DNA from: Lentisphaeraceae bacterium
GTDB lineage: Bacteria; Verrucomicrobiota; Kiritimatiellia; RFP12; UBA1067
DNA length: 64,000 nucleotides
Assembly: GCA_004551905.1 (NCBI GenBank)
Contig: SFPL01000092.1
Span: 1,371-65,370 of the forward strand
Direction: 5' to 3'
The notes beneath the pieces were generated by a model. That model made no database searches, had not been told where the DNA came from, and worked only from the letters and a program-made list of their open reading frames with translations. The position numbers and the translations under genes were made by a program. Shown here in pieces: positions 40,841 to 58,698 of this stretch (its first letter is position 1; every line of letters begins with the position of its first letter).

Positions 40841-40893
40841 CCTTGACGCACAGTCCAAGGTAACCTCTAGCCGTAAATCACGAACCTTGCCGG

Positions 40894-40922
40894 TTGATTT
40901 GCGGCGGCAAATAGTGTATAAT
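40894..40922 (+). promoter_or_regulatory. Sigma70-type promoter of guaB (-35 TTGATT, 17-nt spacer, -10 TATAAT)
   Basis: Read directly. The 39-nt leader contains a GGGCGC-GGA-GCGCCC hairpin abutting the SD. Confidence 0.6.
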
Positions 40923-40961
40923 CCACTTCTAAAAAGGGCGCGGAGCGCCCGGAGGAGTGGT

Positions 40962-42458: not shown

Positions 42459-42463
42459 GTGGG

Positions 42464-42511
42464 TTTGAAAGGCTGAAAGGTTGAAGAGTTGAAAGGTTGA
42501 AGAGTTTGAGA
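42464..42511. repeat. Six tandem octamers of the same GTTGAARR family
   Basis: tttgaaag gctgaaag gttgaaga gttgaaag gttgaaga gtttgaga, between guaB and lepB. Confidence 0.8.
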
Positions 42512-42525
42512 TTGGCAAGTGTAAG

Positions 42526-43272
42526 GTGAAGAAGACGTTTCAAGACTACGGGAAGGAATGGCTCGACACATTCGTCGTCGCTATCTCCGTGGCGATGGCA
42601 TTCCGCGCCTACTTCTACGAGCCGTTCAAGATTCCGACCGGCTCGATGCAGGAGACGCTCTGGGGCCACCACACCCAGGCCGGTGCGGAGAAGGGGGCAT
42701 GGGACATGTTTCCCCTCTCGGTGCTCAAGTGGGCCGTGACCGGCGAGCGGGTGGTGGACTGGAAGTCCCCGGCCACCGGTACCGTCCGCTGCCAGCCGCG
42801 AGGCGACGGCTTCGCCACCGTCAAGGTCGGCACTTGCGACCAGAGCTGGTCGCTGCCGACCGACGCCTGCCGCGAGCTGAACGGCAAGTTCGTGACCAAA
42901 GGCGAAACGCTCTGGAAGGGGTCGATCACCACCGGTGACTTCATCTTCGTCAACCGCTGGAAGTGGAACTTCTTCCAGCCGAAGGACGGAGACGTGATGA
43001 TCTTCTCCACTACTGGCATCAAGCAGCTTCCGCAGGGCACCCACTACATCAAGCGCATGAAGGCGCGGCCGGGCGAGACCTACGTCCTTGAGCATCCAGT
43101 GGAGGGACGGCCCGACGCGGTGACGATGGGGCCCGACGAGTACTTCGCCTGCGGCGACAACTTCAACAACTCCTTCGACAGCCGCTACTGGGGCACGGTG
43201 CCACGCGCGAATCTGCGCGGCGAAGGGGCGTTCGTATTCTGGCCGCTCACCGGCTGGAGGATCATCCGGTAG
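42526..43272 (+). CDS. lepB: Signal peptidase I
   Basis: GSMQETL (Ser), YIKRMKARPGE (Lys) and GDNFNNSFDSRYWG boxes. GTG start. Confidence 0.85.
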   Translation: MKKTFQDYGKEWLDTFVVAISVAMAFRAYFYEPFKIPTGSMQETLWGHHTQAGAEKGAWDMFPLSVLKWAVTGERVVDWKSPATGTVRCQPRGDGFATVKVGTCDQSWSLPTDACRELNGKFVTKGETLWKGSITTGDFIFVNRWKWNFFQPKDGDVMIFSTTGIKQLPQGTHYIKRMKARPGETYVLEHPVEGRPDAVTMGPDEYFACGDNFNNSFDSRYWGTVPRANLRGEGAFVFWPLTGWRIIR

Positions 43273-43296
43273 CGGACATGCGGAGGTAAGAGAGAC

Positions 43297-46056
43297 ATGA
43301 CCGAGCAACTGATCAGCACCCCTGGCGTCTTCGGCGACAACGGCAACTTTCTCCTCGAGCGCGAGCTCGGCGCGGGCGGAATGGGCGGCGTGTACATGGG
43401 CCGCGACAAGATGCTCGACCGTCCGGTCGCGGTGAAGGTTATGCTCAAGGAACTCGGCGCGGACGCGGAGTTCGTCGAGAAGTTCAAGAAGGAGGCGCAG
43501 TCCGCCGCGAAGCTCATCCATCCCAACATCGCCCAGATCTACTCCTATGGCATCAGCGACGGCATGCCGTACATCGCGATGGAGCTTGCGAGCGGTGGCT
43601 CGCTCTACTCGATCATGAACGCCGCGCCGGGCAAGACCGACGTCCAGCGCATCCTCAAGATCTGCCAGCAGGTCGCGCAGGCTCTCCAGTGCGCGAGCGA
43701 CCAGGGCTTCGTGCACGGCGACGTCAAGCCAGAGAACATCCTCCTGGACGCGAACGGCAACGCCAAGCTCGTGGACTTCGGTCTCGCCGGGATGCAGAAG
43801 GACACCGACGAGATATGGGGCACTCCCTACTACATCGCGCCGGAGAAGGTGCGCAAGGAGCAGGTCGACTTCCGCGCCGACATGTACTCGCTCGGCGGCA
43901 CGCTCTACCACGCGCTTACCGGCGTCGCCCCGTTCGAGGGCTCAGACCTGATGGCGGTCGTCAAGAAGCGCTTCGAGGGCACGCCGAAGAAGCCCAGCGA
44001 GATCCGTCCCGAGATATCTCCCGCAATCGACGCGATGGTGATGAAGATGCTCTCGCTGGACAAGAACAACCGCTACCCCAGCTTCGAGGCACTTCTCGAG
44101 GCGTTCAAGGAGGTGCTAGCGTCAGGCCTTACCCAGAAGATGACCCCCGTCCCCGGCGGTGCGAAGTCGCGCCCAGGCGCGAAGCGGTCGGTGGTTGGAA
44201 CGCGCAGGATGATGCTCCGCAAGCGCCCGGTCTCCACCTCGTCCGCGGGCTCTGGCAACGTCGAGAACGACAAGGACGAGGCAGAAGGCAATGAGGAGGA
44301 GGAGAAGAGCCTCAGCCCGCGGGCGAAGATGCGCCGCCGCCTGCACCGTCCGCAAGTCGAGGAGGAGGAAGAAGAGGAGGGCGGCAACCTCGGGGTCAAG
44401 GTGACCCTCTTTGTCGTGATCGGCCTTCTGCTCCTCGGCGGCATCGGCGGCGGACTCGTCTGGTTCGTCCACCACAACGAGGTGGTGAAGGTGGAGGCCG
44501 CGCGTGCCCAGCGCGCCGACGGCATCGCAAGGGCGCGGGCGGCGATCAAGAACACGCGGGAGAAGACCGAGAATTTCAACGACGATTTCCAGAGCTTCAC
44601 CGCCAAGGCGACCGTCGAGTGCGAGAAGTTCACCGCCGAGCTTGCGAAGAACCTACCCACCTACGCGGACCAGTTCCGTCCGCCGCCGACTAAGAAGCTG
44701 CTGAACGCCATTGCCTCCACCAACATTGTGCCGAAGGTCGCGGCCACCAATGCCGTCGCCGCCGCAGGCACCGCCACCAACAACGTTGACGCCGCAGCCG
44801 CTGCAGCCGCTGCAGCCGCCGCAGAGCCGACCAACTCGCTCGCGGCGAGGGCAAAGAAGTACGGGATCAAGATGCCTCAGACCGATGACCCGGCCGACCC
44901 AGACTACCAGGACTTCCTTGCAGCGCTAAAGCAGGCCGAGTCTGGCGGCGCCCCGGCCGCGAAGGAAGAGGAGGCTTCTGCGGAATCAGAGTCTGCTGAG
45001 GCCGAACCGCCGCCACCACCGCCGGAGAAGACCATCGTCGAGAAGGAGAAGGACAGGCTTTTCGAGGAGTCGCTCCCTGATATCCACGAGATCTGGAACC
45101 GCACCTACGACTGCCAGGCCGGTGCAATCCGCATCGGTTCGATGACCAGGAACGTCCTCGAGGCCTGCGACGAGGCCGGGAAGATCCAGGGCACCGACGA
45201 TCAGCCGTCGCTTGACGCCTTAGCCGAGCTTTCGCGCAAGGTAACCGACCTCCACAACGACCTCGTCGGCTCCAAGGAGGTGGAGGAGGTCCGCAAGGGC
45301 ATTGCCTTCATCAAGTCCAAGGGCAAGAAGACCATTGACAAGGTCACCAAGCGGCTCCGCTCGATCAAGCTGAACGAGGAGCGCCGCCTCGCCAAGATCG
45401 AGGCCGAGATCGCCGAAAGCAACCGCCTCGCCAAAGTGGCCGCCGAGCGCAAGGCGCTTGCCGACGGCGAGTGCCGCGCTATCCGCGAGCGGTTCGAGGC
45501 CATCACCGCGCAGGGCTGCCTGCGCCAGCTCGACTGGGACAGCGCCTACCGCATGCTGAAGGAAGTGTACTCCAACTTCAAGACCCCCGAAGGCGAGATC
45601 GCCGCCAAGTTCGAGGTCAGGAAGGTGGACATGATGAAGTCCGTCCAGGACATCTTCCTCAAGCACATGGTCGGCCACAAGTTCAAGGGGAGGCTGAATG
45701 GTGCCAAGGTCGTAGAGGCCACTCCCAAGGACATCCTCATCGTCAAGGCCGACGGCAAGTCGAAGCAGCGCATCCAATGGCAGAAGTTCTACAAGGAGTT
45801 CCCGGGCAACTTCAACGAACTCATCAACGAGTTCATCGTCAAGGGGCGCCGAAACTCCGGACTCAACCTGCGCGAATGGTCCGACGCCATGCTCGGCGCG
45901 GCGCTCACGATGAAGCTCGTCTGCGCCGAGGTGAACAACGCCACCACCCGCGCGCAGCAGATCGCCCAGGAAGTCATCAAGCAGTACCCGGACTACGAGA
46001 AGGCAGTCAAGGACATGTTCCCTGACTTCACCTTCGAGGTGTCGAGCGAGGAGTAG
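43297..46056 (+). CDS. Ser/Thr protein kinase with TM segment and ~540-aa coiled-coil-rich extracytoplasmic region
   Basis: VAVKV, HGDVKPENILLD, DFGLA and GTPYYIAPE. Acidic linker, TM VTLFVVIGLLLLGGIGGGLVWFV. Confidence 0.85.
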   Translation: MTEQLISTPGVFGDNGNFLLERELGAGGMGGVYMGRDKMLDRPVAVKVMLKELGADAEFVEKFKKEAQSAAKLIHPNIAQIYSYGISDGMPYIAMELASGGSLYSIMNAAPGKTDVQRILKICQQVAQALQCASDQGFVHGDVKPENILLDANGNAKLVDFGLAGMQKDTDEIWGTPYYIAPEKVRKEQVDFRADMYSLGGTLYHALTGVAPFEGSDLMAVVKKRFEGTPKKPSEIRPEISPAIDAMVMKMLSLDKNNRYPSFEALLEAFKEVLASGLTQKMTPVPGGAKSRPGAKRSVVGTRRMMLRKRPVSTSSAGSGNVENDKDEAEGNEEEEKSLSPRAKMRRRLHRPQVEEEEEEEGGNLGVKVTLFVVIGLLLLGGIGGGLVWFVHHNEVVKVEAARAQRADGIARARAAIKNTREKTENFNDDFQSFTAKATVECEKFTAELAKNLPTYADQFRPPPTKKLLNAIASTNIVPKVAATNAVAAAGTATNNVDAAAAAAAAAAAEPTNSLAARAKKYGIKMPQTDDPADPDYQDFLAALKQAESGGAPAAKEEEASAESESAEAEPPPPPPEKTIVEKEKDRLFEESLPDIHEIWNRTYDCQAGAIRIGSMTRNVLEACDEAGKIQGTDDQPSLDALAELSRKVTDLHNDLVGSKEVEEVRKGIAFIKSKGKKTIDKVTKRLRSIKLNEERRLAKIEAEIAESNRLAKVAAERKALADGECRAIRERFEAITAQGCLRQLDWDSAYRMLKEVYSNFKTPEGEIAAKFEVRKVDMMKSVQDIFLKHMVGHKFKGRLNGAKVVEATPKDILIVKADGKSKQRIQWQKFYKEFPGNFNELINEFIVKGRRNSGLNLREWSDAMLGAALTMKLVCAEVNNATTRAQQIAQEVIKQYPDYEKAVKDMFPDFTFEVSSEE

Positions 46057-46059
46057 GCC

Positions 46060-47262
46060 ATGCAGACGACGACGGACGAAATCCGCGATTCGATGGCGTC
46101 GAGCTCCTGGATCCGCAGGATGTTCGAGAAGGGGATTGAGCTCAAGCGCCAGTTCGGCGAGGACGCGGTGTGCGACTTCTCGCTCGGCAACCCCGACGTG
46201 CCGCCGCCCGCGGCCGCCCGCGGCGCACTGGCCGGGATCGCCGACGCCGCGGCAAAGCCGCTCGGGCTCGGCTACTGTCCTAACGCCGGCATCCCCGCAG
46301 TGCGCGAGGCGATGGCAAAGTATCTCTCGCGCCAGCAGCAGGCCGAGGTGAAGGCGTCGAACGTCGTGATGTCGGTCGGTGCTGCAGGCGCAATGGTGAG
46401 CTTCTTCCGCGCTGTCGTCGAGCCCGGCGACGAAATCGTCGTGCCCGCGCCCTACTTCGTCGAGTACGGCGCCTACTGCGGACATTTCGGCGGCAAGCTG
46501 AAGCCGGTTCCGTCGCTGCCGCCGTCCTTCGCGCCGGACATCGCAGCCATCCGCTCCGCCGTCGGCCCCAGGACGCGCGCGATCATTGTCAACTCGCCCA
46601 ACAACCCGACCGGGTGCATCTACTCCGAGGACGACATCCGCGCCATCGCCGCAGTCGTCGACGCCGAGAACGAACGCCGTGGACGCGAAGGCGGAAGGGC
46701 GATGTTCCTCCTCTTCGACGAGCCATACCGCGCCTTCGCCTTCGACGGCGCCGTGGTGCCACCCGCCCTGCCGCTTTCCCGCTGGTGCTGCGTGCTGGGC
46801 AGCTTCTCCAAGACCCTCTCGCTCGCCGGCGAGCGCATCGGCTACATTGCCGTCAATCCGTCCATGCCCGGCGGCGACGACCTCGTCTCTGCGCTTGCGC
46901 TCACCACCCGCACACTCGGCTACGTCAATGCGCCGGTGATCGGCCAGCGTCTCGCCGCCGCGCTGCTCGACGAGACGGTCGACCTCGAGGTCTACAACCG
47001 CCGCCGGCTGAAGATGGCGGAGGTGCTGAAGGGCGCCGGAATCGAGTTCGAGCTCCCGAAGGGGGCTTTCTACTTCTTCGCTAAGTCGCCGGTGGATGAC
47101 GACCTCAAGTTCGTCCACGCGCTGCTGGAGGAGAAGATCCTCGTCGTCACCGGCAAGGGCTTCGGCTTCCCCGGCTATGTCCGCCTCAGCTGCTGCGTCG
47201 ACGAGAAGATCATCGCTCGTAGCGCTGTAGGATTCAAGCGGGCTATGGAGAAGTTCAGATGA
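46060..47262 (+). CDS. Class I/II PLP-dependent aminotransferase
   Basis: NPNNPTG-like SPNNPTG and SFSKTLSLAGERIGY (PLP lysine). Confidence 0.85.
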   Translation: MQTTTDEIRDSMASSSWIRRMFEKGIELKRQFGEDAVCDFSLGNPDVPPPAAARGALAGIADAAAKPLGLGYCPNAGIPAVREAMAKYLSRQQQAEVKASNVVMSVGAAGAMVSFFRAVVEPGDEIVVPAPYFVEYGAYCGHFGGKLKPVPSLPPSFAPDIAAIRSAVGPRTRAIIVNSPNNPTGCIYSEDDIRAIAAVVDAENERRGREGGRAMFLLFDEPYRAFAFDGAVVPPALPLSRWCCVLGSFSKTLSLAGERIGYIAVNPSMPGGDDLVSALALTTRTLGYVNAPVIGQRLAAALLDETVDLEVYNRRRLKMAEVLKGAGIEFELPKGAFYFFAKSPVDDDLKFVHALLEEKILVVTGKGFGFPGYVRLSCCVDEKIIARSAVGFKRAMEKFR

Positions 47263-48308
47263 TCGCCGCGCTGATCGCCGCTGCCTGCACCTGCACCTTC
47301 TCCGCCACGGCAACCGGCTTGGAGAAGGGGGCGCCGGTGGAGTTTTTCCTTGCCGCACAGGACTCCGACAACGCCTACGAGACGATGTTCCTCGTCGACG
47401 ATTCTATCGAGGAATTTTGCCGCAAGATCGAGTCCGCCGGCATCCCGCGCGGCAAGGCAGAGTCGGTCAACAACTGCATCCTCTGGCCCGTAGGGTGTCC
47501 GGTGAAAATTGAACCCGCGATTTCTAATTTCATTGCCACCACCATGCCGCCCGGGCTTTCGCTTGGCGACATCATCTACACCGGTGGCTTGCGCGACGTG
47601 AAGGGGAGTCCAGTTGCCTCCACCAAGCAGCCGTGCGCGGCATTTGCGTTCTATTCGCTTGGACAGTCTCCGCTCGTCTTTGACGGCATCTATCCCCAGG
47701 GCGACGTCTACAACGCCCATGTCGCCGCCAAGACGCTGAAGAAGGGCGACAAGGTCAAGTTCACCCTTTCCTGGGACGGCTCCGCCCGCCCCAAGCCGGT
47801 TTCCATCTCCCTCGCACCAGGAACCATTGCCTCCGATCTTAAGCGGCTCAAGGAAGAATCGGCTGACGGCAGGACCCTCGACGTAAAAGTTGACCTTTCC
47901 CCCGAGCTCACGGTCGGCGAGTCCATTGCCGCCGCCCAGGCGCTCGCAATAGTCGATTCCAACAAGGTGAAGATCAACGGATGTGATCCCCACAAGCTCT
48001 TCTACCGCGCCTTTCTGCCGCTCGAAAAATGGTCCGACCGCACCGAACGTCTCGTGCAGCCTTTTGAGCTGACGGTCACCAACGACGTCGACCGGCTCGT
48101 CTACATCGAACAGGACTGGTCAGGCGATGAACTTGACCCGCGGCTTACACCTCGCGAGATCGACTTTGCCAAGGCTGAACATTTCTCAGCTGTTCATACC
48201 TGCTTCATCTACGCTTCTCGTTCTCAGAAGCTTAAGCGACTGTATGAGGCCATGAACAAGCTTAAAAACCTTCGTATCGACAGCTGGTACGTATTTCCCA
48301 TCAACTAA
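47259..48308 (+). CDS. Hypothetical protein
   Basis: 349-aa ORF overlapping the upstream stop by 4 nt. Coding-like composition. No family recognised. Confidence 0.5.
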   Translation: MIAALIAAACTCTFSATATGLEKGAPVEFFLAAQDSDNAYETMFLVDDSIEEFCRKIESAGIPRGKAESVNNCILWPVGCPVKIEPAISNFIATTMPPGLSLGDIIYTGGLRDVKGSPVASTKQPCAAFAFYSLGQSPLVFDGIYPQGDVYNAHVAAKTLKKGDKVKFTLSWDGSARPKPVSISLAPGTIASDLKRLKEESADGRTLDVKVDLSPELTVGESIAAAQALAIVDSNKVKINGCDPHKLFYRAFLPLEKWSDRTERLVQPFELTVTNDVDRLVYIEQDWSGDELDPRLTPREIDFAKAEHFSAVHTCFIYASRSQKLKRLYEAMNKLKNLRIDSWYVFPIN

Positions 48309-48318
48309 CCATAGTTTA

Positions 48319-48324
48319 CATAAT
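48319..48324 (+). promoter_or_regulatory. -10-like CATAAT, 7 nt before ATG 48332
   Basis: AT-rich 23-nt intergenic spacer. No SD. Confidence 0.35.
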
Positions 48325-48331
48325 CTATCTT

Positions 48332-49327
48332 ATGCGCAAATACGACATGAACGACATTGAAAACGACATTCCGCAGAATGCCGTCAGCGTCTATGGTTCG
48401 GATTCGACGATGGACGAGTTTCCGATCCTCAAGGCATTCCAGGAATACATCAACGCCGAACAGGCCAAGGCGCGCAAGCGCATCACCGCGCTGGCGGTGT
48501 TCTTCGGCGTGCTGCTGATTGCAATCCTCGCCATCTTCATGACGCTGCTCGTGAAGTCCTACAACGACAATCAGCACCTCAACGACAGACTTGTCGATTT
48601 TATGCAGAAGGAACGCGAGCGATCCGACAAGGAGCACTCCGAGCGCGAGCGCGCCGCCGCCGAGGCCGCCGCAAGGCCATCGCGCGACAGCGCGGCGGTT
48701 ATAGAGCTGACCAAGAAGATCGAGACTCTCCAGGAGAAAATCTATAACACCCAGCGTAAGGCAGACGAAGCGGAGCGTGCTCTGGTCGAAAAAGAAAAGC
48801 TGATGGCCGAGAAGGACAAGCAGGCCGCCGAGGCGCTGAAAAAGGCGATTGAGGACGCGAAGCCGAAGGGACCAACTCCGGAGGAGCAGGAAATCGCCCG
48901 CCTTAAGTCCCTTCTCGCCGCCGAAAAGCGGAAACAGGCAGCCGCAGTCGAGAAGGAGCGCCGCCGACAGGCGGAGCTTGAGGAATACCGCCGCAAGCAC
49001 TATCCGCAGCACTATCAGCGCCAGACAACCCCTTCCCGCCCTTCCCGCACGCTGACAATCGGTAACCTCGACACCTCTGCACTGCCGCGTTATGACGAGG
49101 ATTACGACGATCTGCCGGACGAAGATACGGCGATCAGCTACTACGATGACGAGGACGAGGCCCCGGCCACCCCCGCCAAGAAGAAGTCAGTCTCCCCTTC
49201 CAAGCCTAAGCCCGCCGCAAAGGCGCCAGCCAAAACTGCGCCCAAAGCGGAACCAGAGGAGAAGTTCTCCATCCCCGTAGAGGTCAAGAAGAGCGACATC
49301 TCCGTCTGGGATATCCCGGAATACTAA
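48332..49327 (+). CDS. Hypothetical single-pass membrane coiled-coil protein with Pro/Ala/Lys-rich tail
   Basis: TM ALAVFFGVLLIAILAIFMTLLV, long E/K/A-rich helix, acidic DEDYDD stretch. ATG lies 7 nt after CATAAT. Confidence 0.5.
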   Translation: MRKYDMNDIENDIPQNAVSVYGSDSTMDEFPILKAFQEYINAEQAKARKRITALAVFFGVLLIAILAIFMTLLVKSYNDNQHLNDRLVDFMQKERERSDKEHSERERAAAEAAARPSRDSAAVIELTKKIETLQEKIYNTQRKADEAERALVEKEKLMAEKDKQAAEALKKAIEDAKPKGPTPEEQEIARLKSLLAAEKRKQAAAVEKERRRQAELEEYRRKHYPQHYQRQTTPSRPSRTLTIGNLDTSALPRYDEDYDDLPDEDTAISYYDDEDEAPATPAKKKSVSPSKPKPAAKAPAKTAPKAEPEEKFSIPVEVKKSDISVWDIPEY

Positions 49328-49368
49328 GGCGTCGCCAACCATCCCGGAGACTTGGGGATGCGACGCCT
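49327..49368. terminator. Long imperfect hairpin between convergent genes (possible bidirectional terminator)
   Basis: AGGCGTCGC...CATCCC-GGAGACTT-GGGGATG-CGACGCCT. No U-tract. Confidence 0.35.
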
Positions 49369-49391
49369 CGCCGATCTCATCCTCGCCGGTT

Positions 49392-50912
49392 TTAGCGGAA
49401 GGTGAAGACGGATCCGGGGAAGTGGGTCATCGTGGCCCACGGAGTATTGCCGTAGCCGCCCAAGTTGACGCGCCTGCCGTGCCAGCCGTTGTTGGTGTCT
49501 GGCTCTTCGGAATAGTCACTCCTCGGATCGCCGGCGTCGATGGCCGGGGACTGCCCCGCCACCTTCTTGACATAGTCACGAACCAACGCCCCGGTATTCT
49601 CGTCGAAGTAGCCGCAGCCGCCGCGCAGGTGGCAGTTGTAGTCAACGACCTGGCCAAATGTTGGCACGGGCTTGGACCAGCTCCAGCTCCAGTTCGTCGG
49701 CAGGGCGCGCGGCATCGTGGCCCCTTCTGGCGACTTGACCTGCGCCATCACCGTGTTCGTCGGAGTCACGAGAAGCGGATCCCCGTATATGCAGTGGGTG
49801 CCGATCTTAAGCGATCCCGCCGTCGTTTCGGAGACGCAGATCGTGCTGCCATCCTCCTCGGGAACGGCGAAGAGGCAGTAGTCCACGGTCGCCGTCGCGT
49901 CGGCCGCGACGCGCAGATCGGCCGCCGCCGTCGCGTTCACCTTGGCGAGGTTGCCGTAGAAGATGCAGTTCGTAACCGCCGTCGCGCCCCTCACGCAGTT
50001 AAGCCCGTGCGAAACGTTGTAGGCAAAGGTGCAGTTCTCGACCAGCGCCGTATCGGTGGCGTTGTCCAGTTTCACCGACAGGACACCCGAGCCGCCGCCG
50101 TAGTTGCCAACGAAGCTGCAACGCCGGAAAACGCTGCCGGAGCAGTTGCCGTGGACATCCGCGATGCCTTCCGCATAATGCCCGTAGAACGAGCATCCGT
50201 CGACCGTGGCGCGCGTGTTGTAGACGTGAAGCGCCGCCATGCTGGCGCGGGAGCTGTCGAAGTTGCGCATCATGTAGTTGGTGACGAACGAGCAGCGGTA
50301 GATGTCCGCGCCGCCGCCGAAGCTACCGACGTAGAGTCCGCCGCCAAAACCGCCGCTGCCGCCTTTGGAGTCGATGATGTTCCCCTCGAACCGGCAATCG
50401 ACAACCGTTGCCTTGGCACTGCCGCTGCCGTAGAGGCCCGCGCCGCCGCCGCCATACTTGTAGTTTTCGTTGGAGTTCCCCTGGCCGTCCCAGTTGCCGT
50501 GGCCTATCGTGCAGCCGTAGAAGACGCAGTTTGTGAGCGTCACATCGCCGGCGGAGGGTGTCTTCTTCAGCCCTCGATACTTACCACGAAGGAACTCGAT
50601 TGAGTCGATGGTGATGCTCTGGGTATTGCTGAAGTTGAAGGTGTCGAAGTTGTTCTTACCGTCAATCACCGACCTATACCCCTCTGGGCGCTCAGACAGC
50701 GCGCACTCAACGCCCGTGAAACCGCCGCGGATCACCACTGAGAATGTGAACTCCTTCGTCGGGATTGTCTCGGTCACGATGTTCGTGCCGGCGATCCAGA
50801 TCTCGTTCTTGAGCGTCGAAGCCGCCGCGAGCGCGTCGGGCCACGACGCGAAGGCGTCGGTCCAGCTCGTGCCGTCGTTCCTGCCGATTGCGCCCGGACG
50901 CACGTGAATCAC
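49392..50912 (-). CDS. Beta-helix (pectate-lyase-like) repeat protein, third segment of the interrupted giant surface-protein frame
   Basis: GTG start 7 codons after an in-frame TAG. No signal peptide. Module is paralogous to residues in the 1304-aa ORF (DGTSWTDAF...EIWIAGTN...DAGDPRSDYSEEP...NLGGYGNT). Confidence 0.55.
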   Translation of the reverse strand: MIHVRPGAIGRNDGTSWTDAFASWPDALAAASTLKNEIWIAGTNIVTETIPTKEFTFSVVIRGGFTGVECALSERPEGYRSVIDGKNNFDTFNFSNTQSITIDSIEFLRGKYRGLKKTPSAGDVTLTNCVFYGCTIGHGNWDGQGNSNENYKYGGGGAGLYGSGSAKATVVDCRFEGNIIDSKGGSGGFGGGLYVGSFGGGADIYRCSFVTNYMMRNFDSSRASMAALHVYNTRATVDGCSFYGHYAEGIADVHGNCSGSVFRRCSFVGNYGGGSGVLSVKLDNATDTALVENCTFAYNVSHGLNCVRGATAVTNCIFYGNLAKVNATAAADLRVAADATATVDYCLFAVPEEDGSTICVSETTAGSLKIGTHCIYGDPLLVTPTNTVMAQVKSPEGATMPRALPTNWSWSWSKPVPTFGQVVDYNCHLRGGCGYFDENTGALVRDYVKKVAGQSPAIDAGDPRSDYSEEPDTNNGWHGRRVNLGGYGNTPWATMTHFPGSVFTFR

Positions 50913-50933
50913 GTTGTCCGGACCCTTCTTGCC

Positions 50934-53900
50934 CTACCACGGCGGAAGCGTCCCCGAAACGATGGAACTCGCCGTCGCCGACTCGCTCATCTGGCCCGCG
51001 CCCTCCACCGCAACCTTCACCTGGATTGTGTCGCCGGGGACATAGTAGGCGGGGACCTGGAAGATCTTGGTCTGCCCGTTTATGAGACCGCCGAGCGTGC
51101 CGGAGACGTCCACCCAAGTCACGCCGCCGTCCGTAGAAATGTAAATCGTGCCGCGCGCGATGTAGGAGCCGCTGCCGCCCATTGTGAAGGAAATGGTCGG
51201 CATCGTGTAACCGTCAGGGTTGTCCCAGGCGACCGTTGGCGCGCCGACGACGGCAGGCGAGGCGGACGGCGTGCGCGACGCCTGCTCGGTGTTGCCGTAG
51301 CGGCCGAGGTTGACGCAGCCGCCGTTGGGCGCGCTCTCGCGCGAGAAGTCGCTCTCGGGATCGCCCGCGTCTATCGCCAGAGAGCGGACACCCGCCGCGG
51401 CATAGTGGATGTGGCCTTCGGAGTCGAAATAGCCCGCATCGGAAAGGAGGTGGCAATCGTTCGCCGCCGCGAAGAGCGGATCGCCGTAGACCATCGAGTC
51501 TCCGAACTTCGACGCGCCGTTGACGAACGAACAGGTCGCGCCAGTGTCGTCCGCGAGGAGCGTGTAGTCGATGTCGAACGCTGAGTTGGCGCTGTCAGCG
51601 AAGTCGACTTCGTTCCCGAAGAAGATCGAGTTGCGGACAACGATCTGGCCATTGACGCCCTTCACGCCCGCGCAGCCGCCAGCGGTGGCATTGGCGTTCG
51701 CCGTGAAGGTGCAGTTGGCGATCTCGGAGCGCCCCTCGAGCGTGTAATGCTCGATCATCACCGCCGCGCCGTTCGCGCCGTCCGTCTGGTTGCCGCGGAA
51801 GAGGCAGTTCTCGATTGTGTTCGGCGCGTTGCTGCCCGACGCGCGCACCGTGCCGTAAGTCGCGTCGCTGCCGATGTTGCCGATGAAGTCGCACTCCTTG
51901 AGTTCAACCGCCGAGTTGTTCGCGAAGATCGCGCTCGTCTTCACCTTCGACGAGGTCGCGAGCGTGTTACCGGCGAAAAGCGAGTTCTCGACCGAGACGC
52001 GCCGCGTGAGGTAGGAATAGATCGACGCCGCTCCGTCCGCCTCGTCCGTCGAGAAGTTGTTCTTGAAGACGCTGTTCTTCGCATAAAGCGCGCCCTGATC
52101 ATAAGGCGACTTGTCGAGGCCTTGCACATAAAGCGCGTTGCCGTTCTCCTCGAAGACGCAGTCGTCGATGAAGACGTCGCCGGCCCAGCCAGTCTTGGAG
52201 ACCGCCCTTGCCGGCGAGCCGCGGAAGTGAAGATGCTCGAAAAACACGTTGCAGCAGTCCCTGAAGACCACGGCGGAGAACTGGCCGTCGCCGTCGATAA
52301 TGGAGTATGCGCCATCCTCGCGTTCCTCGATCGTCGATTCCGTCCCCTTGAAGCCGCCGCGGAAAATCTTGTTGCCGTAGAATGTCTGCGTAACCGCCGC
52401 GGCAGAGAGCACGTTCGAGCCGGCGATCCAGATTTCGCTGTTGGCGTGCGAAGCGGCGGCGAGGTTAAGCGCCGTCGAGAAATCGACCGCGTCCGCCCAC
52501 GAGGTGCCGCCGTTCTCCGGCAGGCCGTCCGGCTTCACATAGATGGGCGTTCCGAGGCGGAAGTTCGCGCCCGCGACGCCGTGGTGTCTCCCGAGCCCCC
52601 TCGCCGCAACATAGCCGTTGCCGTGCTTCTGTGCAACCGTGCTGTAGTCCAGCGCGCTGCCGGCGGAATTGTTCGCGCCGTAGAAGAGCTCGTAGTCGAC
52701 GCCTTCCGTGAGGATGTTGCCTTCGTCGTCACGGACGACGACCGGCGGCCGCACCTGATCCTCTCCGAAATACGGATAGCACTTCTCGACTTCGATATTA
52801 AGGTCGGTGTCGGAGGTGATGGAGATGTTGTCGAAGAGCGAAAAGCAGTTGCCAAACGAGCCGACCGAGTTGTTAATAACCTTGAGCGTGTATATTCCGT
52901 CCTCTGCAACGGTGAAGTCGGTCTGCACCGTGTGCCATGACGTTCCGTAGATGCGCATTTCGTTGGTGACGGAGCAGAGCGACTGCGCGACGTTGTTCGA
53001 GTTGACAAGCTGCCAGGTTTGAATCGTGTGATCCGTCGCTGCCGCCGCATGCTCGAACGTCAGCGTGTAGTTGCCGGCGGGAATGGCGAGCCCTGCCTGG
53101 AAAAAGATATTGCCCTGATACGAGCTCAGATAATGGTATCCGCGCCGGTCGCTCGTCGTTGAATGAACACCCAGCTGGGCACGGTCATTAACCCGGTTCC
53201 AGCTCGCCGACATGAATGTCCTCCAAGCGGAGCCGTCATGGAAATTTCCAGCCCCCTCCTCAACGCCGGGGTCGGCGTTGAGGGCGCGCGTGACGTCGAT
53301 TTTCTTGAGCATTTGCAGTTTCGCCGCGACTGGCGCCTCGGCGGTGAAGTTGACGGTGAAGTTGTCGGCGGAGCGCGGCGCGCCGTCCGGCAGGCCGTGC
53401 CACTCGATCGCCTCCTCGCCAGCCACCGGCGTGTAGACGATCGACACCTTGTCGCCGACACTCACCCATTCGCTCGCGCCGCCGCCGTTGATGGAGAACG
53501 TGCCCTCACCATGCAGCGCGCGGAGGTCGATCAGCACCTCTACCTTGCCGCTCGTCGCGTTCCAGCGCATGTCGGACGAGTTGAACGCCTCCTCCGGCGC
53601 AACGCCTTCATAGCGCACCTTGTCCACCGCGGCGTTGTAGGCGATTTCCTGACTCGTGAGCGGACAGTCGTAGAGCCTGATCGAATAGAGCCGCCCCTCG
53701 AAGTTGTAGCGTGATTCGCTTTCGCCGCCGATCGAGGCCCGCGTAAAGGTGTAGATCCAGTCGATGCCGGCTTGCGACTTGGTGGTGGAGATGCCGGTGG
53801 TGCGCCTGACGCCGTTCTCGTAGAACAGCATCGGGGCGTCGCTCGCGGAGCTGGCGGCACCATAGACGACGGCAATGTCGCGGACGTTCGCGTCTGGATT

Positions 53901-54848
53901 GGTCATTCCCGTCAGGACGGCGCGGTTCGCGTTGTTCTGGTGATGGAACCAGAGCTGGTTCAGGGCGAAATACCAGACAACGCGGTTCCAGGCGTAGCCG
54001 GAGACAAACGGCATGCCGCGGCGCGCCTTGTCGCTGCGGTACTTGATCTCCATCGTGAGGTACTGGCCCGTCTTGCCCGCGGCGGCACCGGCAAAGCCAT
54101 GCGTCTGAAGGAACCCGCCGCCCCAGTCTGCGCGGTCTGTGAGCGTAAAATCGAGTCCGCCCTTGAGGTCCTTCCAAGTCGCGGCGGCAGGGTCGAATGT
54201 GCCAGTCCCGACATTGTCTATGGCGTCCCAGTGGTTCATCAGCCCGTGCTGGACATAGGCGGTCGCGGGCATTGCGGGAGCCGCCGGCGCGGCGTAGATT
54301 GCGAACGTGTTGGTGACGACGCCCCTGTACGCGCCAATGCCAGAAACAATCGCCTTGCCAGTTCCTACCGCGGCATTGTTCTCGTAGGAAACGGTGTAGT
54401 CGACGTCCTTCACCAGCAGCGCGGTGCCGGTGTGGTTGGAGACGACGACCGACGGCTCGAGCGCGGCGCCGGAGTAGAACTGGTTGGGAATCCGCGCGAC
54501 GGCGATGTCCGTCTCGTAAGGCCCTGCGATGAACGCCCCCGTGCCGACATTCTTGAAGAAGGTGTCGGTCACGAGATCCCAGAGCCCGATGACGCTGCCG
54601 CGGAGGACGGGAACGAAATCGCGGACAAGCACGCCGTCCTGCCAGATCTTGAACGAGTAGAGGGTGAGCTTTGACTTTGAGTTGCCGTTGTTGGTCGCGA
54701 AGATGTCGAGCTTGTTCGACCCGGTGTATGCGAGCGAGACCGTCTTCGTAACGGTGTTTCCGCCGAGGTTGAAGTGGCAGTTGTCCACAGCGTCGGTGCT
54801 GATGGAGATAAATCCGTCGACGCCGTTTTCGTACATCATCCCCAGCAC
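50934..54848 (-). CDS. Giant surface protein segment (jelly-roll remainder, LamG-like, Ig-like and beta-helix modules)
   Basis: 1304-aa ORF in the same frame as both neighbours. GRLYSIRLYDCPLTSQEI (LamG-like). Beta-helix module GGTSWADAV...EIWIAGSN...DAGDPESDFSRES...NLGRYGNT. Confidence 0.6.
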   Translation of the reverse strand: MLGMMYENGVDGFISISTDAVDNCHFNLGGNTVTKTVSLAYTGSNKLDIFATNNGNSKSKLTLYSFKIWQDGVLVRDFVPVLRGSVIGLWDLVTDTFFKNVGTGAFIAGPYETDIAVARIPNQFYSGAALEPSVVVSNHTGTALLVKDVDYTVSYENNAAVGTGKAIVSGIGAYRGVVTNTFAIYAAPAAPAMPATAYVQHGLMNHWDAIDNVGTGTFDPAAATWKDLKGGLDFTLTDRADWGGGFLQTHGFAGAAAGKTGQYLTMEIKYRSDKARRGMPFVSGYAWNRVVWYFALNQLWFHHQNNANRAVLTGMTNPDANVRDIAVVYGAASSASDAPMLFYENGVRRTTGISTTKSQAGIDWIYTFTRASIGGESESRYNFEGRLYSIRLYDCPLTSQEIAYNAAVDKVRYEGVAPEEAFNSSDMRWNATSGKVEVLIDLRALHGEGTFSINGGGASEWVSVGDKVSIVYTPVAGEEAIEWHGLPDGAPRSADNFTVNFTAEAPVAAKLQMLKKIDVTRALNADPGVEEGAGNFHDGSAWRTFMSASWNRVNDRAQLGVHSTTSDRRGYHYLSSYQGNIFFQAGLAIPAGNYTLTFEHAAAATDHTIQTWQLVNSNNVAQSLCSVTNEMRIYGTSWHTVQTDFTVAEDGIYTLKVINNSVGSFGNCFSLFDNISITSDTDLNIEVEKCYPYFGEDQVRPPVVVRDDEGNILTEGVDYELFYGANNSAGSALDYSTVAQKHGNGYVAARGLGRHHGVAGANFRLGTPIYVKPDGLPENGGTSWADAVDFSTALNLAAASHANSEIWIAGSNVLSAAAVTQTFYGNKIFRGGFKGTESTIEEREDGAYSIIDGDGQFSAVVFRDCCNVFFEHLHFRGSPARAVSKTGWAGDVFIDDCVFEENGNALYVQGLDKSPYDQGALYAKNSVFKNNFSTDEADGAASIYSYLTRRVSVENSLFAGNTLATSSKVKTSAIFANNSAVELKECDFIGNIGSDATYGTVRASGSNAPNTIENCLFRGNQTDGANGAAVMIEHYTLEGRSEIANCTFTANANATAGGCAGVKGVNGQIVVRNSIFFGNEVDFADSANSAFDIDYTLLADDTGATCSFVNGASKFGDSMVYGDPLFAAANDCHLLSDAGYFDSEGHIHYAAAGVRSLAIDAGDPESDFSRESAPNGGCVNLGRYGNTEQASRTPSASPAVVGAPTVAWDNPDGYTMPTISFTMGGSGSYIARGTIYISTDGGVTWVDVSGTLGGLINGQTKIFQVPAYYVPGDTIQVKVAVEGAGQMSESATASSIVSGTLPPW

Positions 54849-54869
54849 TTCCCCCGCGCCGCGGAAACT

Positions 54870-55907
54870 TTAGGTGTCGTTCTGAGACAGCTGGTAGGAG
54901 CTTGCCGTATTCCACGCCCCCGCGCCGAACCACGAGGTACCGTTCGCGCTGTTCGTGGTGTTGAAATGCATCTCGACGGCTGTCGTGGGACCAGGCACGA
55001 TTCCGGTGTCGATGTACTGCGTGCCGGTGGAGGTGATGGACTTGACGCGACGGTAGATGACGAAGGAGTTCGACGAGGACATGCCTTCAAGCGCGCTTCC
55101 GGCCTTGCCGGTCACGGTCACGGTGCACCGGTTGCCATCATAGGTATAGGCGACATCGAGCGGGGTCTCCACGGCCGAGGTTCCGCCCGGACCAAAAGTC
55201 CAGCTCGTGTCGTCCATATAGTTCGTGACCACGAAACCCGGCGCAGGCTGTTCGCCGAAAAGACTGACCTGGGAGGGGATCTTCAGCACCTTGATGTTAT
55301 ACGACGGCTCCTCGGTGAAGAGGAACTCGTCGCCCTCGGTATTCATGAACTTGCGCCACTGCTGATAGTTGCTGGTGGTGCAGGATGTAAGACCGTTCGT
55401 GTTCCAGGCAAGGCCGGCCGCAAGCTGGCTCGCGTTGTTGAACGGCGCAGTAGTCGGGCCCTTGCCGCCTGAACCGTTGCCGACGCGAAGGTCGATGCCG
55501 TAATAGCCGTCCGATTCAGGCGTGAAGCTGCCGGTCGGCACTTGGCTGAAGGCGGTGTTGTTGATCACTGTAACTTCGTTGCCGTCGAGATCGGTGATTC
55601 GGACCAGGCCGTTGTCATCGTAGTTCTTCACGAAGTAATAGGTGACGCCGCCCTTCATGAACATCAAACCCTTGTAGGCGTATGTCTGGTTGTCGCCCAT
55701 CGTATATGTCGTACCTTCGTAGGTGTAGCTGGAGGTGTGGGTCGAGGCCAGGAGCGCACCGGGCACGACAATGCCGCCGTCGCTTGGATCGTCAGTTGTA
55801 TTGAACGCCCCGGACAGGGCCTTCTGAAAAAGCCCTGGATCCGCGAACGCCGTCGCCGCGGCAAAAGCCGCTGCGAGACACACAAGACCAGACGCGAGTT
55901 TCTTCAT
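54870..55907 (-). CDS. Signal-peptide-bearing N-terminal segment of the giant surface protein (PA14-like domain plus first half of a jelly-roll domain)
   Basis: MKKLASGLVCLAAAFAAATAFA signal peptide. PA14-like YYFVKNYDDNGLVRIT...GYYGIDLRVGN. Ends at a TAA in the middle of the STGTQYIDTG... domain. gggag SD. Confidence 0.6.
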   Translation of the reverse strand: MKKLASGLVCLAAAFAAATAFADPGLFQKALSGAFNTTDDPSDGGIVVPGALLASTHTSSYTYEGTTYTMGDNQTYAYKGLMFMKGGVTYYFVKNYDDNGLVRITDLDGNEVTVINNTAFSQVPTGSFTPESDGYYGIDLRVGNGSGGKGPTTAPFNNASQLAAGLAWNTNGLTSCTTSNYQQWRKFMNTEGDEFLFTEEPSYNIKVLKIPSQVSLFGEQPAPGFVVTNYMDDTSWTFGPGGTSAVETPLDVAYTYDGNRCTVTVTGKAGSALEGMSSSNSFVIYRRVKSITSTGTQYIDTGIVPGPTTAVEMHFNTTNSANGTSWFGAGAWNTASSYQLSQNDT

Positions 55908-55969
55908 GGTGTTACTCCCTGAGTTATGTCATGAAAATAAAACAACATACTTTCAAACTTTACGGGTGA

Positions 55970-55978
55970 ATATTACCA
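55970..55978 (-). promoter_or_regulatory. Possible extended -10 (TGGTAATAT) of the giant surface-protein gene
   Basis: In an AT-rich 129-nt spacer. About 55-nt leader with gggag SD. Confidence 0.35.
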
Positions 55979-56036
55979 AATTTGCGGCAATTTGGCAACC
56001 CCCCACACAAAAATGACAGACGACATTCGGGAATTC

Positions 56037-57422
56037 TCAACGAATCGGAACCGCGGGCTTGGCGGCGGGATCGAAGAGCCGCTCCTGTCCGGTGGCGTCC
56101 ATCACGCAGCGCCAGAGGTCGCCTGCCAGGCTCAGCTTCTGGCGGTTGATGGTGGCGAGCGCAATGGGGACGAGCGTGTAGAGCTCTGGGGCGACGCTGC
56201 CGACGACGCAGTCGGTGCGTCCGGCCATTGCCGCGTGCACCGCGTTTCGGGCGAGCATGTAGCAGCGGATGGCGTCGGTGCCGCGCGCCGGGACCGACCG
56301 GATGGTGTAGCTCGGGTCGAAGTACTTGACGGTGTGGTCGAAGTTCTTCTGGCGGAAATGCTCGGTGATCCGCCGCTTGAGGTAGTCGCCAATGTCCTTC
56401 TTGAGCACGTTGCCGGAGGCGTCGCGCTCCTCGGCGCCGCTGAAGAAGCGCTGTCCGGCCCCTTCCGCGACTACGATCACAGCGTGGTCCTTGCCGTAGG
56501 AAAAACGCCGTTCGAGCGCGGCGAGAAGTCCGCTGGGACCGTCGATCTCAAAGTCGATCTCGGGGATGAGGCAGAAGTTGACGACGGGATTGGCCATCGA
56601 GGCATAGGCGGCGATGAACCCGGAGTCGCGTCCCATCAGCTTGACGAGGCCTATCCCGTGGTGGGCGCCGCGCGCCTCGATGTGGGCGTTGCGGATGACC
56701 GGCGTCGCCTCGGCGACGGCTGTCTCGAAGCCGAAGGAGCGTCCCACGAAGTGAAGGTCGTTGTCGATGGTCTTGGGGATGCCGACGACGGATATCGAGA
56801 GCATCCGCCGCAGCGCCTCGAGGGCGATGTCGTGGGCGCAGCGAAGCGAGCCGTCGCCGCCGATGCAAAAGAGGATGTTGATGTTCATCCGCTCGAGCGT
56901 GTCCACCACCACCTCGGTGGGCTGGTGCCCGCGAGAGGATCCGAGGATGGTGCCGCCGAGCTCGTGGATGGTGTCGACGGAGTCGACGTCTAGCGGTATC
57001 GGCGCATAGCCGCATTCTGGCGACAACCCGGCGTAGCCGTAGCGGATGCCGTAGATGGTGCGGATGCCGTAGTCGGCGGAGAGGATCTCGACGAGTCCCT
57101 TGATGACGTTGTTGAGGCCGGGGCAAAGGCCCCCGGCGGTGACGATTCCAACCCGTGTCCACGCCGGGTCGTGGAATATCATCTCATGCGGGCCGGCGCG
57201 CTCGAAGCTCGGCTTGTGACCGAGTCTGCTCTCCCACGCCTCGAGGAGCTCCATGTCCCCCGTTAGCAGCACACGGCGCCCCTCCTCAACAAAGTCGTGC
57301 CGTCTGATCGGCGAGGGAATCTTCGCCTCGCCGAGGGTCTTTACCTCGCAACTGTAGGTAATGCGGTCGGAGGCAATCATCTCGAGCAACGGCGCCGCGA
57401 TGTGGTTGGGATTCTCATTCAT
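56037..57422 (-). CDS. pfkA: 6-phosphofructokinase (long PFK family; GGDGS motif favours ATP dependence, PPi dependence not excluded)
   Basis: GIVTAGGLCPGLNNVI, CIGGDGSLR, GIPKTIDND and LMGRDSGFIA. Start moved to ATG 57422, 8 nt after TGCTATACT. Confidence 0.85.
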   Translation of the reverse strand: MNENPNHIAAPLLEMIASDRITYSCEVKTLGEAKIPSPIRRHDFVEEGRRVLLTGDMELLEAWESRLGHKPSFERAGPHEMIFHDPAWTRVGIVTAGGLCPGLNNVIKGLVEILSADYGIRTIYGIRYGYAGLSPECGYAPIPLDVDSVDTIHELGGTILGSSRGHQPTEVVVDTLERMNINILFCIGGDGSLRCAHDIALEALRRMLSISVVGIPKTIDNDLHFVGRSFGFETAVAEATPVIRNAHIEARGAHHGIGLVKLMGRDSGFIAAYASMANPVVNFCLIPEIDFEIDGPSGLLAALERRFSYGKDHAVIVVAEGAGQRFFSGAEERDASGNVLKKDIGDYLKRRITEHFRQKNFDHTVKYFDPSYTIRSVPARGTDAIRCYMLARNAVHAAMAGRTDCVVGSVAPELYTLVPIALATINRQKLSLAGDLWRCVMDATGQERLFDPAAKPAVPIR

Positions 57423-57430
57423 AGAACTGT

Positions 57431-57439
57431 AGTATAGCA
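57431..57439 (-). promoter_or_regulatory. Extended -10 promoter (TGCTATACT) of the phosphofructokinase gene
   Basis: 8 nt before ATG 57422 on the minus strand. Confidence 0.5.
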
Positions 57440-57468
57440 TTTTGAGGCCACGCGCGCAATGTGAACCG

Positions 57469-58698
57469 CTACTCGTAGCGCAGGCACTCGATCGGGTTGA
57501 GCTTGGAGGCGCGGTAGGCCGGGTAGAAGCCGAAGAACATGCCGACGAAGGACGAGAACAGGAACGAGTACAGCGCGCTCGAGAACTCGATCACAATCGG
57601 CCAGTGGTTAACCTCTCCGATCACCTTCGCCGCGCCCACGCCGAGCGCGACGCCTATCGCCCCGCCTACCGTCGACAGCACCACCGCCTCGAGGATGAAC
57701 TGCCAGAGGATGCAGGCCGGGGTGGCGCCGATCGCCATTCTTAGGCCGATCTCCTTGATGCGCTCGGTCACCGAGACGAGCATGATGTTCATGATGCCGA
57801 TGCCGCCGACGAGCAGCGAAATCGCCGCGACCGCGGTGAGAAGCACGGTCATGAGGCCGGTCACCGACCCCATCGTGTTCATGATCTCGGTGGTGTCGCG
57901 CGTCTCGAAGTCGTCGTCCTGGTAGTCGGCGAGATTGTGCCGCTGCCTCAAGAGCGCCGTCACCTCCCGCCTCGCCTCGTCGTTGTCGTCCAGCGACCAG
58001 AGCGAGATGTTCATCATGTTGATCGAGCGGAACTTGGAGCGCTGGAGCACCCGGCCGACCGTGGTGTACGGGGCCATCACCGTGTCGTCCTGATCCTGCC
58101 CCCAGCTGTTCGCGCCCTTCGCCGCGAGCACGCCGACCACCTTGAACGGCATCGCGCCCATGCGGATGGTGGCGCCGACCGCCTCCTCGCCTTCGTCGAA
58201 GAGATTGGCCTTGACCGTCGTGCCGATCACGCAGACACGGGCGCAGGCGCGCTGCTCCGACTCTTCGAAGAACCTGCCCTCGGCGATGTTCCAGTTGCGG
58301 ATCTCCGGCATATCGTAACTCACCCCGCTCACGCGGCAGTTCCAGTTGCGGTTGTCGCGGATGAGCTGGCAGGAGACGTTCACCGACGGCGAGACGCCGC
58401 TGACGAGGTGGCCGAGCTCGCGCTTGACCGCCTCCGCGTCGCCGGCGGTCATAGTCTCGCCCGCGCCCATGCCGCTCCTCACCGCGCCCTTCCGGTTGCG
58501 GTCGGGGAAGACCATCATCAGGTTGTTCCCCATTGACGAGATCTCCTTCACCATCATCGTCGAGGCGCCCTTGCCGATCGCCAGCACCGAGATAACCGCG
58601 GCGATGCCGACGATGATGCCGATGCAGGTGAGGAGCGAGCGCGTCTTGTTGCGCATGATGGCGAGGATCGCCACCTTGAAGACCATGCCAAAGTTCAT
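57469..58698 (-). CDS. MacB/FtsX-type ABC transporter permease (no ATPase domain)
   Basis: N-terminal TM RSLLTCIGIIVGIAAVI, large periplasmic domain, C-terminal FtsX-like three-TM bundle. ATG lies 7 nt after TGGTATAAC. Confidence 0.8.
   Translation of the reverse strand: MNFGMVFKVAILAIMRNKTRSLLTCIGIIVGIAAVISVLAIGKGASTMMVKEISSMGNNLMMVFPDRNRKGAVRSGMGAGETMTAGDAEAVKRELGHLVSGVSPSVNVSCQLIRDNRNWNCRVSGVSYDMPEIRNWNIAEGRFFEESEQRACARVCVIGTTVKANLFDEGEEAVGATIRMGAMPFKVVGVLAAKGANSWGQDQDDTVMAPYTTVGRVLQRSKFRSINMMNISLWSLDDNDEARREVTALLRQRHNLADYQDDDFETRDTTEIMNTMGSVTGLMTVLLTAVAAISLLVGGIGIMNIMLVSVTERIKEIGLRMAIGATPACILWQFILEAVVLSTVGGAIGVALGVGAAKVIGEVNHWPIVIEFSSALYSFLFSSFVGMFFGFYPAYRASKLNPIECLRYE

Follow-up and report, generated by a model that had tools for sequence, protein, structure and literature searches.

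Two nonsense substitutions have probably inactivated, very recently, a gene for a giant secreted LamG/beta-helix protein in a Kiritimatiellae bacterium

A question raised by the locus described here is whether three neighbouring reading frames, each listed as a separate gene, are indeed three genes or are pieces of one giant gene cut by two stop codons, and, if the latter, what the stops represent. The locus occupies positions 49392-55907 on the minus strand of a 64,000-nucleotide (nt) stretch of DNA (the window) from contig SFPL01000092.1 of a Lentisphaeraceae bacterium (assembly GCA_004551905.1). According to the open reading frame (ORF) list, it consists of an ATG-started ORF1 of 345 amino acids (aa) at 55907-54870, a GTG-started ORF2 of 1,304 aa at 54848-50934, and a GTG-started ORF3 of 506 aa at 50912-49392. 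The initial annotation had placed these ORFs in one shared frame of 2,172 triplets, and its coordinates and stops were re-derived exactly: the span of 6,516 nt is a single frame of 2,172 codons in which stops occur only at codons 346, 1658, and 2172, and the product of the intact state would comprise 2,171 aa. The seven sense codons said to separate each internal stop from the following GTG were also seen, after the TAA and after the TAG alike. The evidence presented below makes it very probable that a single gene, encoding a giant secreted LamG/beta-helix protein, has genuinely and very recently lost its function through two nonsense mutations.

The GC content of the window is 60-70%, and long chance ORFs are therefore common in it. 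The three ORFs of the locus are nevertheless judged not to be a chance alignment in GC-rich DNA, because the GC content at third codon positions (GC3) of the three pieces is of the coding type (0.78-0.84) and because all pieces show end-to-end homology to single proteins of 2,150-3,066 aa. The search with the merged protein, in which X stood for the stops, returned a protein of 2,171 aa (P0001) that is 100% identical to the query and has Tyr at position 346 and Trp at position 1658. It is encoded on contigs from other samples, namely L002 (ERZ943833) and L003 (ERZ27309586), whose gap-free alignments with the window show identities of 99.90% and 99.93%, respectively. Within the gene, L003 differs from the window at two bases only, and these are the two that create the stops. 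The TAA of codon 346 (54872-54870, minus strand) is TAC (Tyr) in the intact alleles, the changed base being 54870 (C to A on the coding strand), while the TAG of codon 1658 (50936-50934, minus strand) is TGG (Trp), the changed base being 50935 (G to A on the coding strand). L002 shows the same two differences plus nine synonymous sites. All the neighbouring genes are intact and equal in length to those in L002 and L003, and the flanks are 99.9% identical. Since the two stop bases are the sole differences from L003 in the gene, this comparison indicates that the window allele was derived from an intact one extremely recently. Further intact variants of 2,170-2,176 aa, about ten in number, are present in the same 90% clusters. 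The changes between L003 and L002 are nine synonymous and zero non-synonymous, and the ratio of non-synonymous to synonymous substitution rates (dN/dS) among intact orthologues is 0.26-0.29, which together indicate that the intact gene is under purifying selection elsewhere.

The same picture was obtained from more distant relatives. About 40 full-length homologues were found in metagenome-assembled genomes (MAGs) of Kiritimatiellae, each being one protein of 2,150-3,066 aa with 58-77% identity over 91-100% of the length; the query was covered to 100% by P0002-P0007, P0014, P0030, and P0031, and to 98% by P0011 (58-77% identity). At the DNA level, none of eight homologous gene copies at seven GTDB/JGI loci, including L004-L008 and L013, has an internal stop. 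These loci come from GTDB representative genomes and a JGI metagenome contig; the former include RUG MAGs, which we take to be rumen genomes, as well as 'Kiritimatiellae bacterium MB2.95_2', whose gene shows 95% identity. The related contigs derive from rumen- and gut-labelled samples. A scan of JGI metagenomes yielded two related loci, both open, a number too small for allele statistics. In an alignment of 41 sequences, codon 346 is Tyr in 40 and Phe in one, and codon 1658 is Tyr in 28, Trp in nine, His in three, and Phe in one (all 41 are counted here as aromatic); the latter codon sits within the motif GTLPPW[YW]GKKGP, which is near-invariant across the 41 homologues. Each stop is a single mutational step from the conserved codon (TAC to TAA; TGG to TAG), and a stop at either site was found in none of the homologues and near-identical alleles compared. 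The orthologous loci, in short, carry sense codons at both sites. Orthologues arranged as three genes with their own export signals were looked for, but the three-gene organisation was not seen in any of the roughly 40 full-length proteins or the eight DNA-level copies, and the homologues are all single open genes. Among the explanations offered by the initial annotation, these data strongly favour recent pseudogenisation, given that L003 differs at the two stop bases only and that the distant homologues are open with conserved aromatic residues.

The signals for expression and export lie at the head of the frame. A Shine-Dalgarno (SD)-like GGGAG, read from the sequence, is located at 55915..55919 on the minus strand, 8 nt before the ATG at 55907, and a promoter-like site, TTGCCA-17-TAATAT with a TG, lies at 55970..55998 (minus strand) in the AT-rich leader of ORF1. 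In a promoter-like scan of the minus strand of the locus, the latter (55998-55970) was the sole match, with none inside the giant gene. ORF1 begins with a predicted Sec-type signal peptide of 22 aa, MKKLASGLVCLAAAFAAATAFA|DP (55842..55907, minus strand), for which the cleavage motif AFA|DP was judged by eye from the translation; this is the only export signal across the whole frame, and the translations of ORF2 and ORF3 contain no signal peptide. The earlier statement that a signal peptide, an SD, and an AT-rich promoter region belong to ORF1 only thus stands.

In sequence terms, the merged protein belongs to a family of giant secreted LamG/right-handed beta-helix proteins of Kiritimatiellae. 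Pfam matches were obtained for Laminin_G_3 at aa ~621-756 (29.7 bits; cut-off 27.6) and for Beta_helix in ORF3 (35.9 bits; cut-off 25.9; E 7.4e-9), while NCBIfam held no family for any fragment and a PDB sequence search with merged aa 1-544 (Tyr restored at 346) returned nothing at E<=10. The AlphaFold2 (AF2) model of aa 24-560 has a mean predicted local distance difference test (pLDDT) score of 56, with values of 65-86 over aa ~205-465. From this model, Foldseek, and a module repeated in homologues, a LamG/concanavalin-like beta-sandwich was placed at aa ~277-463 (54519..55079, minus strand). The Foldseek matches of the N-terminal model to laminin G, agrin G2, and pentraxin are weak (E ~4e-3; template modelling (TM) score ~0.5) and support a concanavalin-like sandwich only; the recurrence of the LamG-like module is seen in P0037, whose aa 678-909 align to aa 285-491 (E 6.5e-10). 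In the model, Tyr346 corresponds to residue 323 and falls within strand 322-326 (model numbering). Because this residue lies in a strand of the sandwich, the first stop is predicted to destroy a folded module by cutting inside a beta-strand. Internal repeats at aa 1122-1553 and aa 1667-2161 correspond to two beta-helix modules, and the AF2 model of aa 1556-2171 contains an Ig (immunoglobulin)-like sandwich (1556-1637), a low-confidence linker (1638-1686) holding Trp1658, and then a beta-helix. Alignment and model together define this linker (50850..50996, minus strand) as conserved and as the carrier of the GTLPPW[YW]GKKGP motif and the second stop. Because Trp1658 lies in the linker between the Ig-like sandwich and the beta-helix, the second stop is modelled at a module boundary, and ORF3 would represent one complete beta-helix module. 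Both downstream ORFs had been thought to start inside modules; this applies to ORF2, which opens within the LamG-like sandwich, but not to ORF3, which opens at a module boundary with the linker and the first beta-helix strand. A PA14-type lectin domain considered for the N-terminus was dropped, with no Pfam match even at E<=1 and a pLDDT of 25-58 over aa 24-200 of the AF2 model, and relaxed Pfam searches of sub-segments gave sub-threshold noise only (DUF5077, PKD, and BNR). We infer a role as a glycan-binding adhesin or an enzyme from the domain types only.

The following course of events is proposed. The ancestral state would have been one gene with 2,171 codons, whose giant, Sec-exported product was modular and consisted, in order, of a signal peptide, an N-terminal beta-rich tip, an Ig/PKD-like domain, a LamG-like sandwich, Ig-like domains, Laminin_G_3, a beta-helix module, an Ig-like sandwich, the conserved linker, and a second beta-helix module. 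In the window strain, two single-base substitutions would then have turned the conserved aromatic codons Tyr346 (TAC to TAA) and Trp1658 (TGG to TAG) into stops. Translation from the sole promoter, SD, and signal peptide would end at codon 345, giving an exported stump of at most 345 aa with a broken LamG-like domain. This first fragment (54870..55907, minus strand; 345 codons plus TAA), which contains the signal peptide, the N-terminal beta-rich domain, the Ig/PKD-like domain, and the first ~70 residues of the LamG-like sandwich, is likely the only part still made and exported. The remaining 1,826 codons would be either untranslated or, after fortuitous restart, turned into cytoplasmic fragments that lack a signal peptide. 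Of these, the second fragment (50934..54869, minus strand; codons 347-1657 plus TAG) comprises the rest of the LamG-like module, Ig-like domains, Laminin_G_3, an uncharacterised region, beta-helix module 1, and the Ig-like sandwich, and the third (49392..50933, minus strand; codons 1659-2171 plus the natural TAA) carries the second right-handed beta-helix module together with a conserved tail at the C-terminus. The locus would accordingly be a very recent loss-of-function pseudogene that still looks coding. The next genes downstream of the giant gene are convergent and none is co-oriented, so no neighbour should suffer polar effects.

Several other explanations have to be weighed against this loss of function. 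If the stops were products of sequencing, consensus, or assembly, as had been suggested at the outset, the true bases would be TAC and TGG and the gene would be ordinary and intact. It is relevant here that the window seems to come from a contig assembled from a metagenome, that the nonsense allele occurs only in records possibly from one sample (the 65,404-bp contig, which is on record in NCBI, ENA, and Logan, and the SRR9218181 contig of Logan), and that the frameshifts in other family members may be assembly errors. However, the Logan assembly of SRR9218181 (L001, 11,668 bp) is 100% identical to window positions 46137-57804, including both stops and the same three gene calls, so that two different assemblies show no base difference across 11.7 kb. 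There is no homopolymer or repeat at either stop, and consensus-level substitution errors are rare in short-read assemblies. In addition, the two stops are the only differences from L003 in at least 8.1 kb, whereas stop-creating changes make up 3.07% of all single-base changes in the gene and 4.8% of the GC-to-AT changes; the probability that two out of two random changes are both stops is ~0.001-0.002. The agreement between the Logan and the deposited contigs, which may share reads, speaks against an assembler error but not against a library-level one; the latter is made improbable by this low probability. An artefact as a whole is therefore thought to be quite unlikely. Hardly more can be said for a functional split, in which ribosomes restart (at ATG 54839 or GTG 54848, and at GTG 50912) and three proteins are made from one mRNA. 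An SD-like GGGGGAA does lie 9-12 nt before ATG 54839, and an SD-like AAGAAGGG ~10 nt before GTG 50912; gene callers annotate three proteins; the start of ORF3 coincides with the first strand of a complete beta-helix module; and an independent frameshift allele, L010, gives the same GTG-started product of 511 aa. The purine-rich runs before the restart codons, which had been taken to leave restart possible, are thus present, but they are coding sequence identical in the intact allele, where they encode RGAGEVLGMM and the conserved GKKGPDNV. Because the restart contexts are unchanged in this way, no signal seems to have evolved for restart. Moreover, ORF2 and ORF3 have no signal peptides though their domains are all of extracellular type, ORF2 opens with a LamG-like sandwich short of its first ~70 residues, and no homologue is built as three genes. 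We therefore regard the split as improbable.

Still less probable is programmed readthrough or recoding, by which a suppressor tRNA, pyrrolysine (Pyl)-type decoding, or reassigned codons would yield a full-length protein whose amount or length is tuned. Both stops do replace aromatic residues, the downstream frame is perfectly preserved, and the tRNA search covered the 64-kb window only. On the other hand, no relative has the stops, not even the 99.9%-identical alleles, two different stop codons are involved, and the preserved frame is explained by the recency of the allele, for which no recoding is needed. TAA and TAG also act as normal terminators in the window: with the three stops of this frame counted in, the 49 predicted genes end in TGA (26), TAG (13), or TAA (10), and both TAA and TAG end conserved genes of normal length, as judged from the matching lengths in L002 and L003. 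The tRNA search of the 64-kb window found tRNA-Cys only and no suppressor tRNA, and an Rfam scan of the same 64 kb found nothing beyond this tRNA-Cys and no recoding element. With stops that are not conserved, TAA and TAG ending other genes, and neither suppressor tRNA nor recoding RNA in the window, the initial suggestion of regulated readthrough or reinitiation tuning the length of the protein finds no support. A switchable contingency locus, in which the stops are one state of phase or antigen variation by repeat slippage, inversion, a diversity-generating retroelement (DGR), or gene conversion, is just as hard to credit. This idea is in keeping with a giant surface protein family that has several paralogues per genome, tandem copies (L004 and L015), and swapped N-terminal domains, and with the recurrence of disrupted alleles. 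Both lesions, however, are plain point substitutions in non-repetitive sequence, with no tandem repeats at or near 54870 and 50935. Likewise, no paralogous donor or template copy (for a DGR or gene conversion) was found within the window, and instead of long inverted repeats the locus has a single weak 20-nt pair inside the gene, one arm of which (50831-50850) lies ~100 nt from the second stop. The lesions of other strains, finally, differ in place and type.

Having weighed these alternatives, we return to the loss-of-function reading and to the lesions in other strains and paralogues. L009, L010, and L011, which come from the same 90% clusters as the gene, each carry a lesion. L009 (98% identity) has ACG changed to TAG at codon 234, beside GAC changed to TAC at codon 232. 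L010 has a 1-nt deletion (-1 frameshift) at ~codon 1647, with gene calls of 901 aa (cut by the contig end) and 511 aa, the second of which shares the GTG of ORF3 of the window. L011 has a 5-nt deletion at ~codon 1456 on a contig of 3.4x coverage and was treated as uncertain, and the apparent truncated allele of L012 was discarded, as it lies on a scaffold with a 100-N gap. Split alleles are also found in two paralogue clusters; the two that were checked (L015 and L016) are both frameshifts and possibly assembly errors. The firm recurrent cases are only the nonsense ones. Overall, disruption of these very large genes appears to be common.

Two further observations concern these lesions. At 5950-5975 of L009, three base changes fall within 9 nt (GGACGACACGAG to GTACGACTAGAG; D232Y and T234*), and this stop could have arisen by a multi-nucleotide mutation or micro-conversion rather than by a simple point mutation. 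In the linker (window 50850-50996; L010 2600-2710), two independent lesions, the TAG at codon 1658 and the frameshift at ~codon 1647, lie at most 12 codons apart, and both leave the same GTG-started beta-helix ORF. The pair could be coincidental (~1% by chance), or it could reflect protein processing at this site or a point at which truncation is preferred.

We infer that the function of the gene was lost in the window strain, and that this loss was favoured or at least tolerated. Selection for loss is possible, if the strain thereby evades a phage, predator, or host factor by which the protein is recognised; tolerance is also conceivable, through redundancy with paralogues (the tandem copies of L004; P0006 and P0030 in one MAG). 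The finding that two out of two changes are stops, together with the recurrence of lesions, argues mildly for selection. It is tempting to suggest that both nonsense mutations and the lesions of the other strains were positively selected, and that gut and rumen Kiritimatiellae repeatedly shed or shorten a giant lectin-like surface protein, but this wider proposal is rather unlikely on present evidence. Some points weigh against the interpretation preferred here. The sequence alone is compatible with selection for the loss as well as with simple tolerance of it. Supposing that Tyr346* was the earlier lesion, the other stop would have been neutral, and such a stop would arise as the next change with a probability of 3-5%. 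Low-level readthrough may occur, or restart at ATG 54839 or GTG 50912 after the SD-like purine runs. Of the 'recurrent' lesions, several are frameshifts from metagenome assemblies, one of them with 3.4x coverage, and these could be errors. The Logan contig may share the read set of the window, in which case it controls for the assembler and not for the library. Because the comparison was made between assemblies, the base at either stop could still be a consensus error, the allele could be present at any frequency, and the two stops need not be in phase.

The kind of event described here is well known, and no new mechanism is revealed. In Salmonella Typhi and Paratyphi A, shdA, ratB, and sivH, which encode large surface or colonisation proteins, have been independently inactivated, and the authors were likewise unable to separate selection from tolerance (PMC2658671). 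The two situations are alike in that very large genes for secreted or surface proteins of host interaction are inactivated independently by lineage while close relatives remain intact. They differ in that the Kiritimatiellae of the present case are uncultured commensals, the protein family is unrelated, the event is far more recent (relative to one intact allele, the gene shows no further change), and a single gene has received two nonsense hits. Our search for literature on surface-protein pseudogenes of Kiritimatiellae, and on the run SRR9218181, found nothing relevant. As a protein, the intact allele is a full-length member of the giant secreted right-handed parallel beta-helix/LamG proteins of the Planctomycetes-Verrucomicrobia-Chlamydiae (PVC) group, relatives that are named 'right-handed parallel beta-helix repeat-containing protein' or 'hypothetical protein' in NCBI; unlike these, the window copy is interrupted twice, and the family has no characterised member. 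Known cases of programmed readthrough or reassignment (selenocysteine (Sec), Pyl, genetic codes 4/25, and suppressor tRNAs) share with this locus the in-frame stops within an otherwise perfect long frame, whereas here the stops are unconserved, consist of two codons that both end nearby genes, and are accompanied by no recoding element or suppressor tRNA in the window.

Other features of the family and the locus were also recorded. Differences between the window and L003 over 39392-55967 are distributed as a mosaic, with nine in 39392-47837 (8.4 kb) and, apart from the two stop bases, none in the tract 47838-55967 (at least 8.1 kb), which suggests a recent recombination tract or a sweep over the giant gene. 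Within the family, the body of the protein is constant from ~aa 193 on, while the N-terminal tip (~190-700 aa) is swapped, as in P0008, P0012, P0021, P0022, P0025, P0027, P0034, P0037, P0040, and P0041. The versions of the tip include the beta-rich domain of the window type, F5/8 type C (discoidin; PF00754 on P0012 and P0021), extra LamG-like copies, and long insertions, and the swapping looks like modular exchange of a ligand-binding head. Tandem paralogues occur in L004 (8001-14474 and 14872-21333) and L015 (446-9551 and 9669-end), and P0006 and P0030 apparently come from one MAG, judged by their common IKC15 locus-tag prefix. The family thus appears to be multi-copy per genome, and loss of one copy could be tolerable. 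All homologues share a conserved C-terminal tail, ...GNTPWAT-x4-PG-(5 hydrophobic residues)-R (window 49392-49460), which matched no known sorting-signal model in NCBIfam or Pfam; it could be a sorting or anchoring signal or a mere beta-helix cap. Downstream, the giant gene is adjoined by two convergent plus-strand genes at 47259-48308 (349 aa) and 48332-49327 (331 aa), with no Pfam match on record. Their GC3 is 0.73-0.76, versus 0.85-0.95 in neighbours, and they are kept beside the giant gene in L001, L003, and L009.

For annotation, these results mean that the three deposited 'hypothetical proteins' are to be corrected to fragments of one, very probably inactivated, gene and flagged as a pseudogene. 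For biology, the locus offers what is probably a clean natural example of an uncultured bacterium of the gut or rumen that has lost a giant surface protein only very recently. If the loss was indeed selected, it could have served, for example, to evade phages, protists, or host antibodies for which the protein is the receptor; the linker PPW[YW]GKKGP would then be a preferred truncation point, and the surface protein would be polymorphic in length at the population level. Because independent lesions are present in other strains and paralogues, this uncharacterised LamG/beta-helix family is a likely target of fluctuating selection by phages, predators, or the host, which could guide population-genomic surveys.

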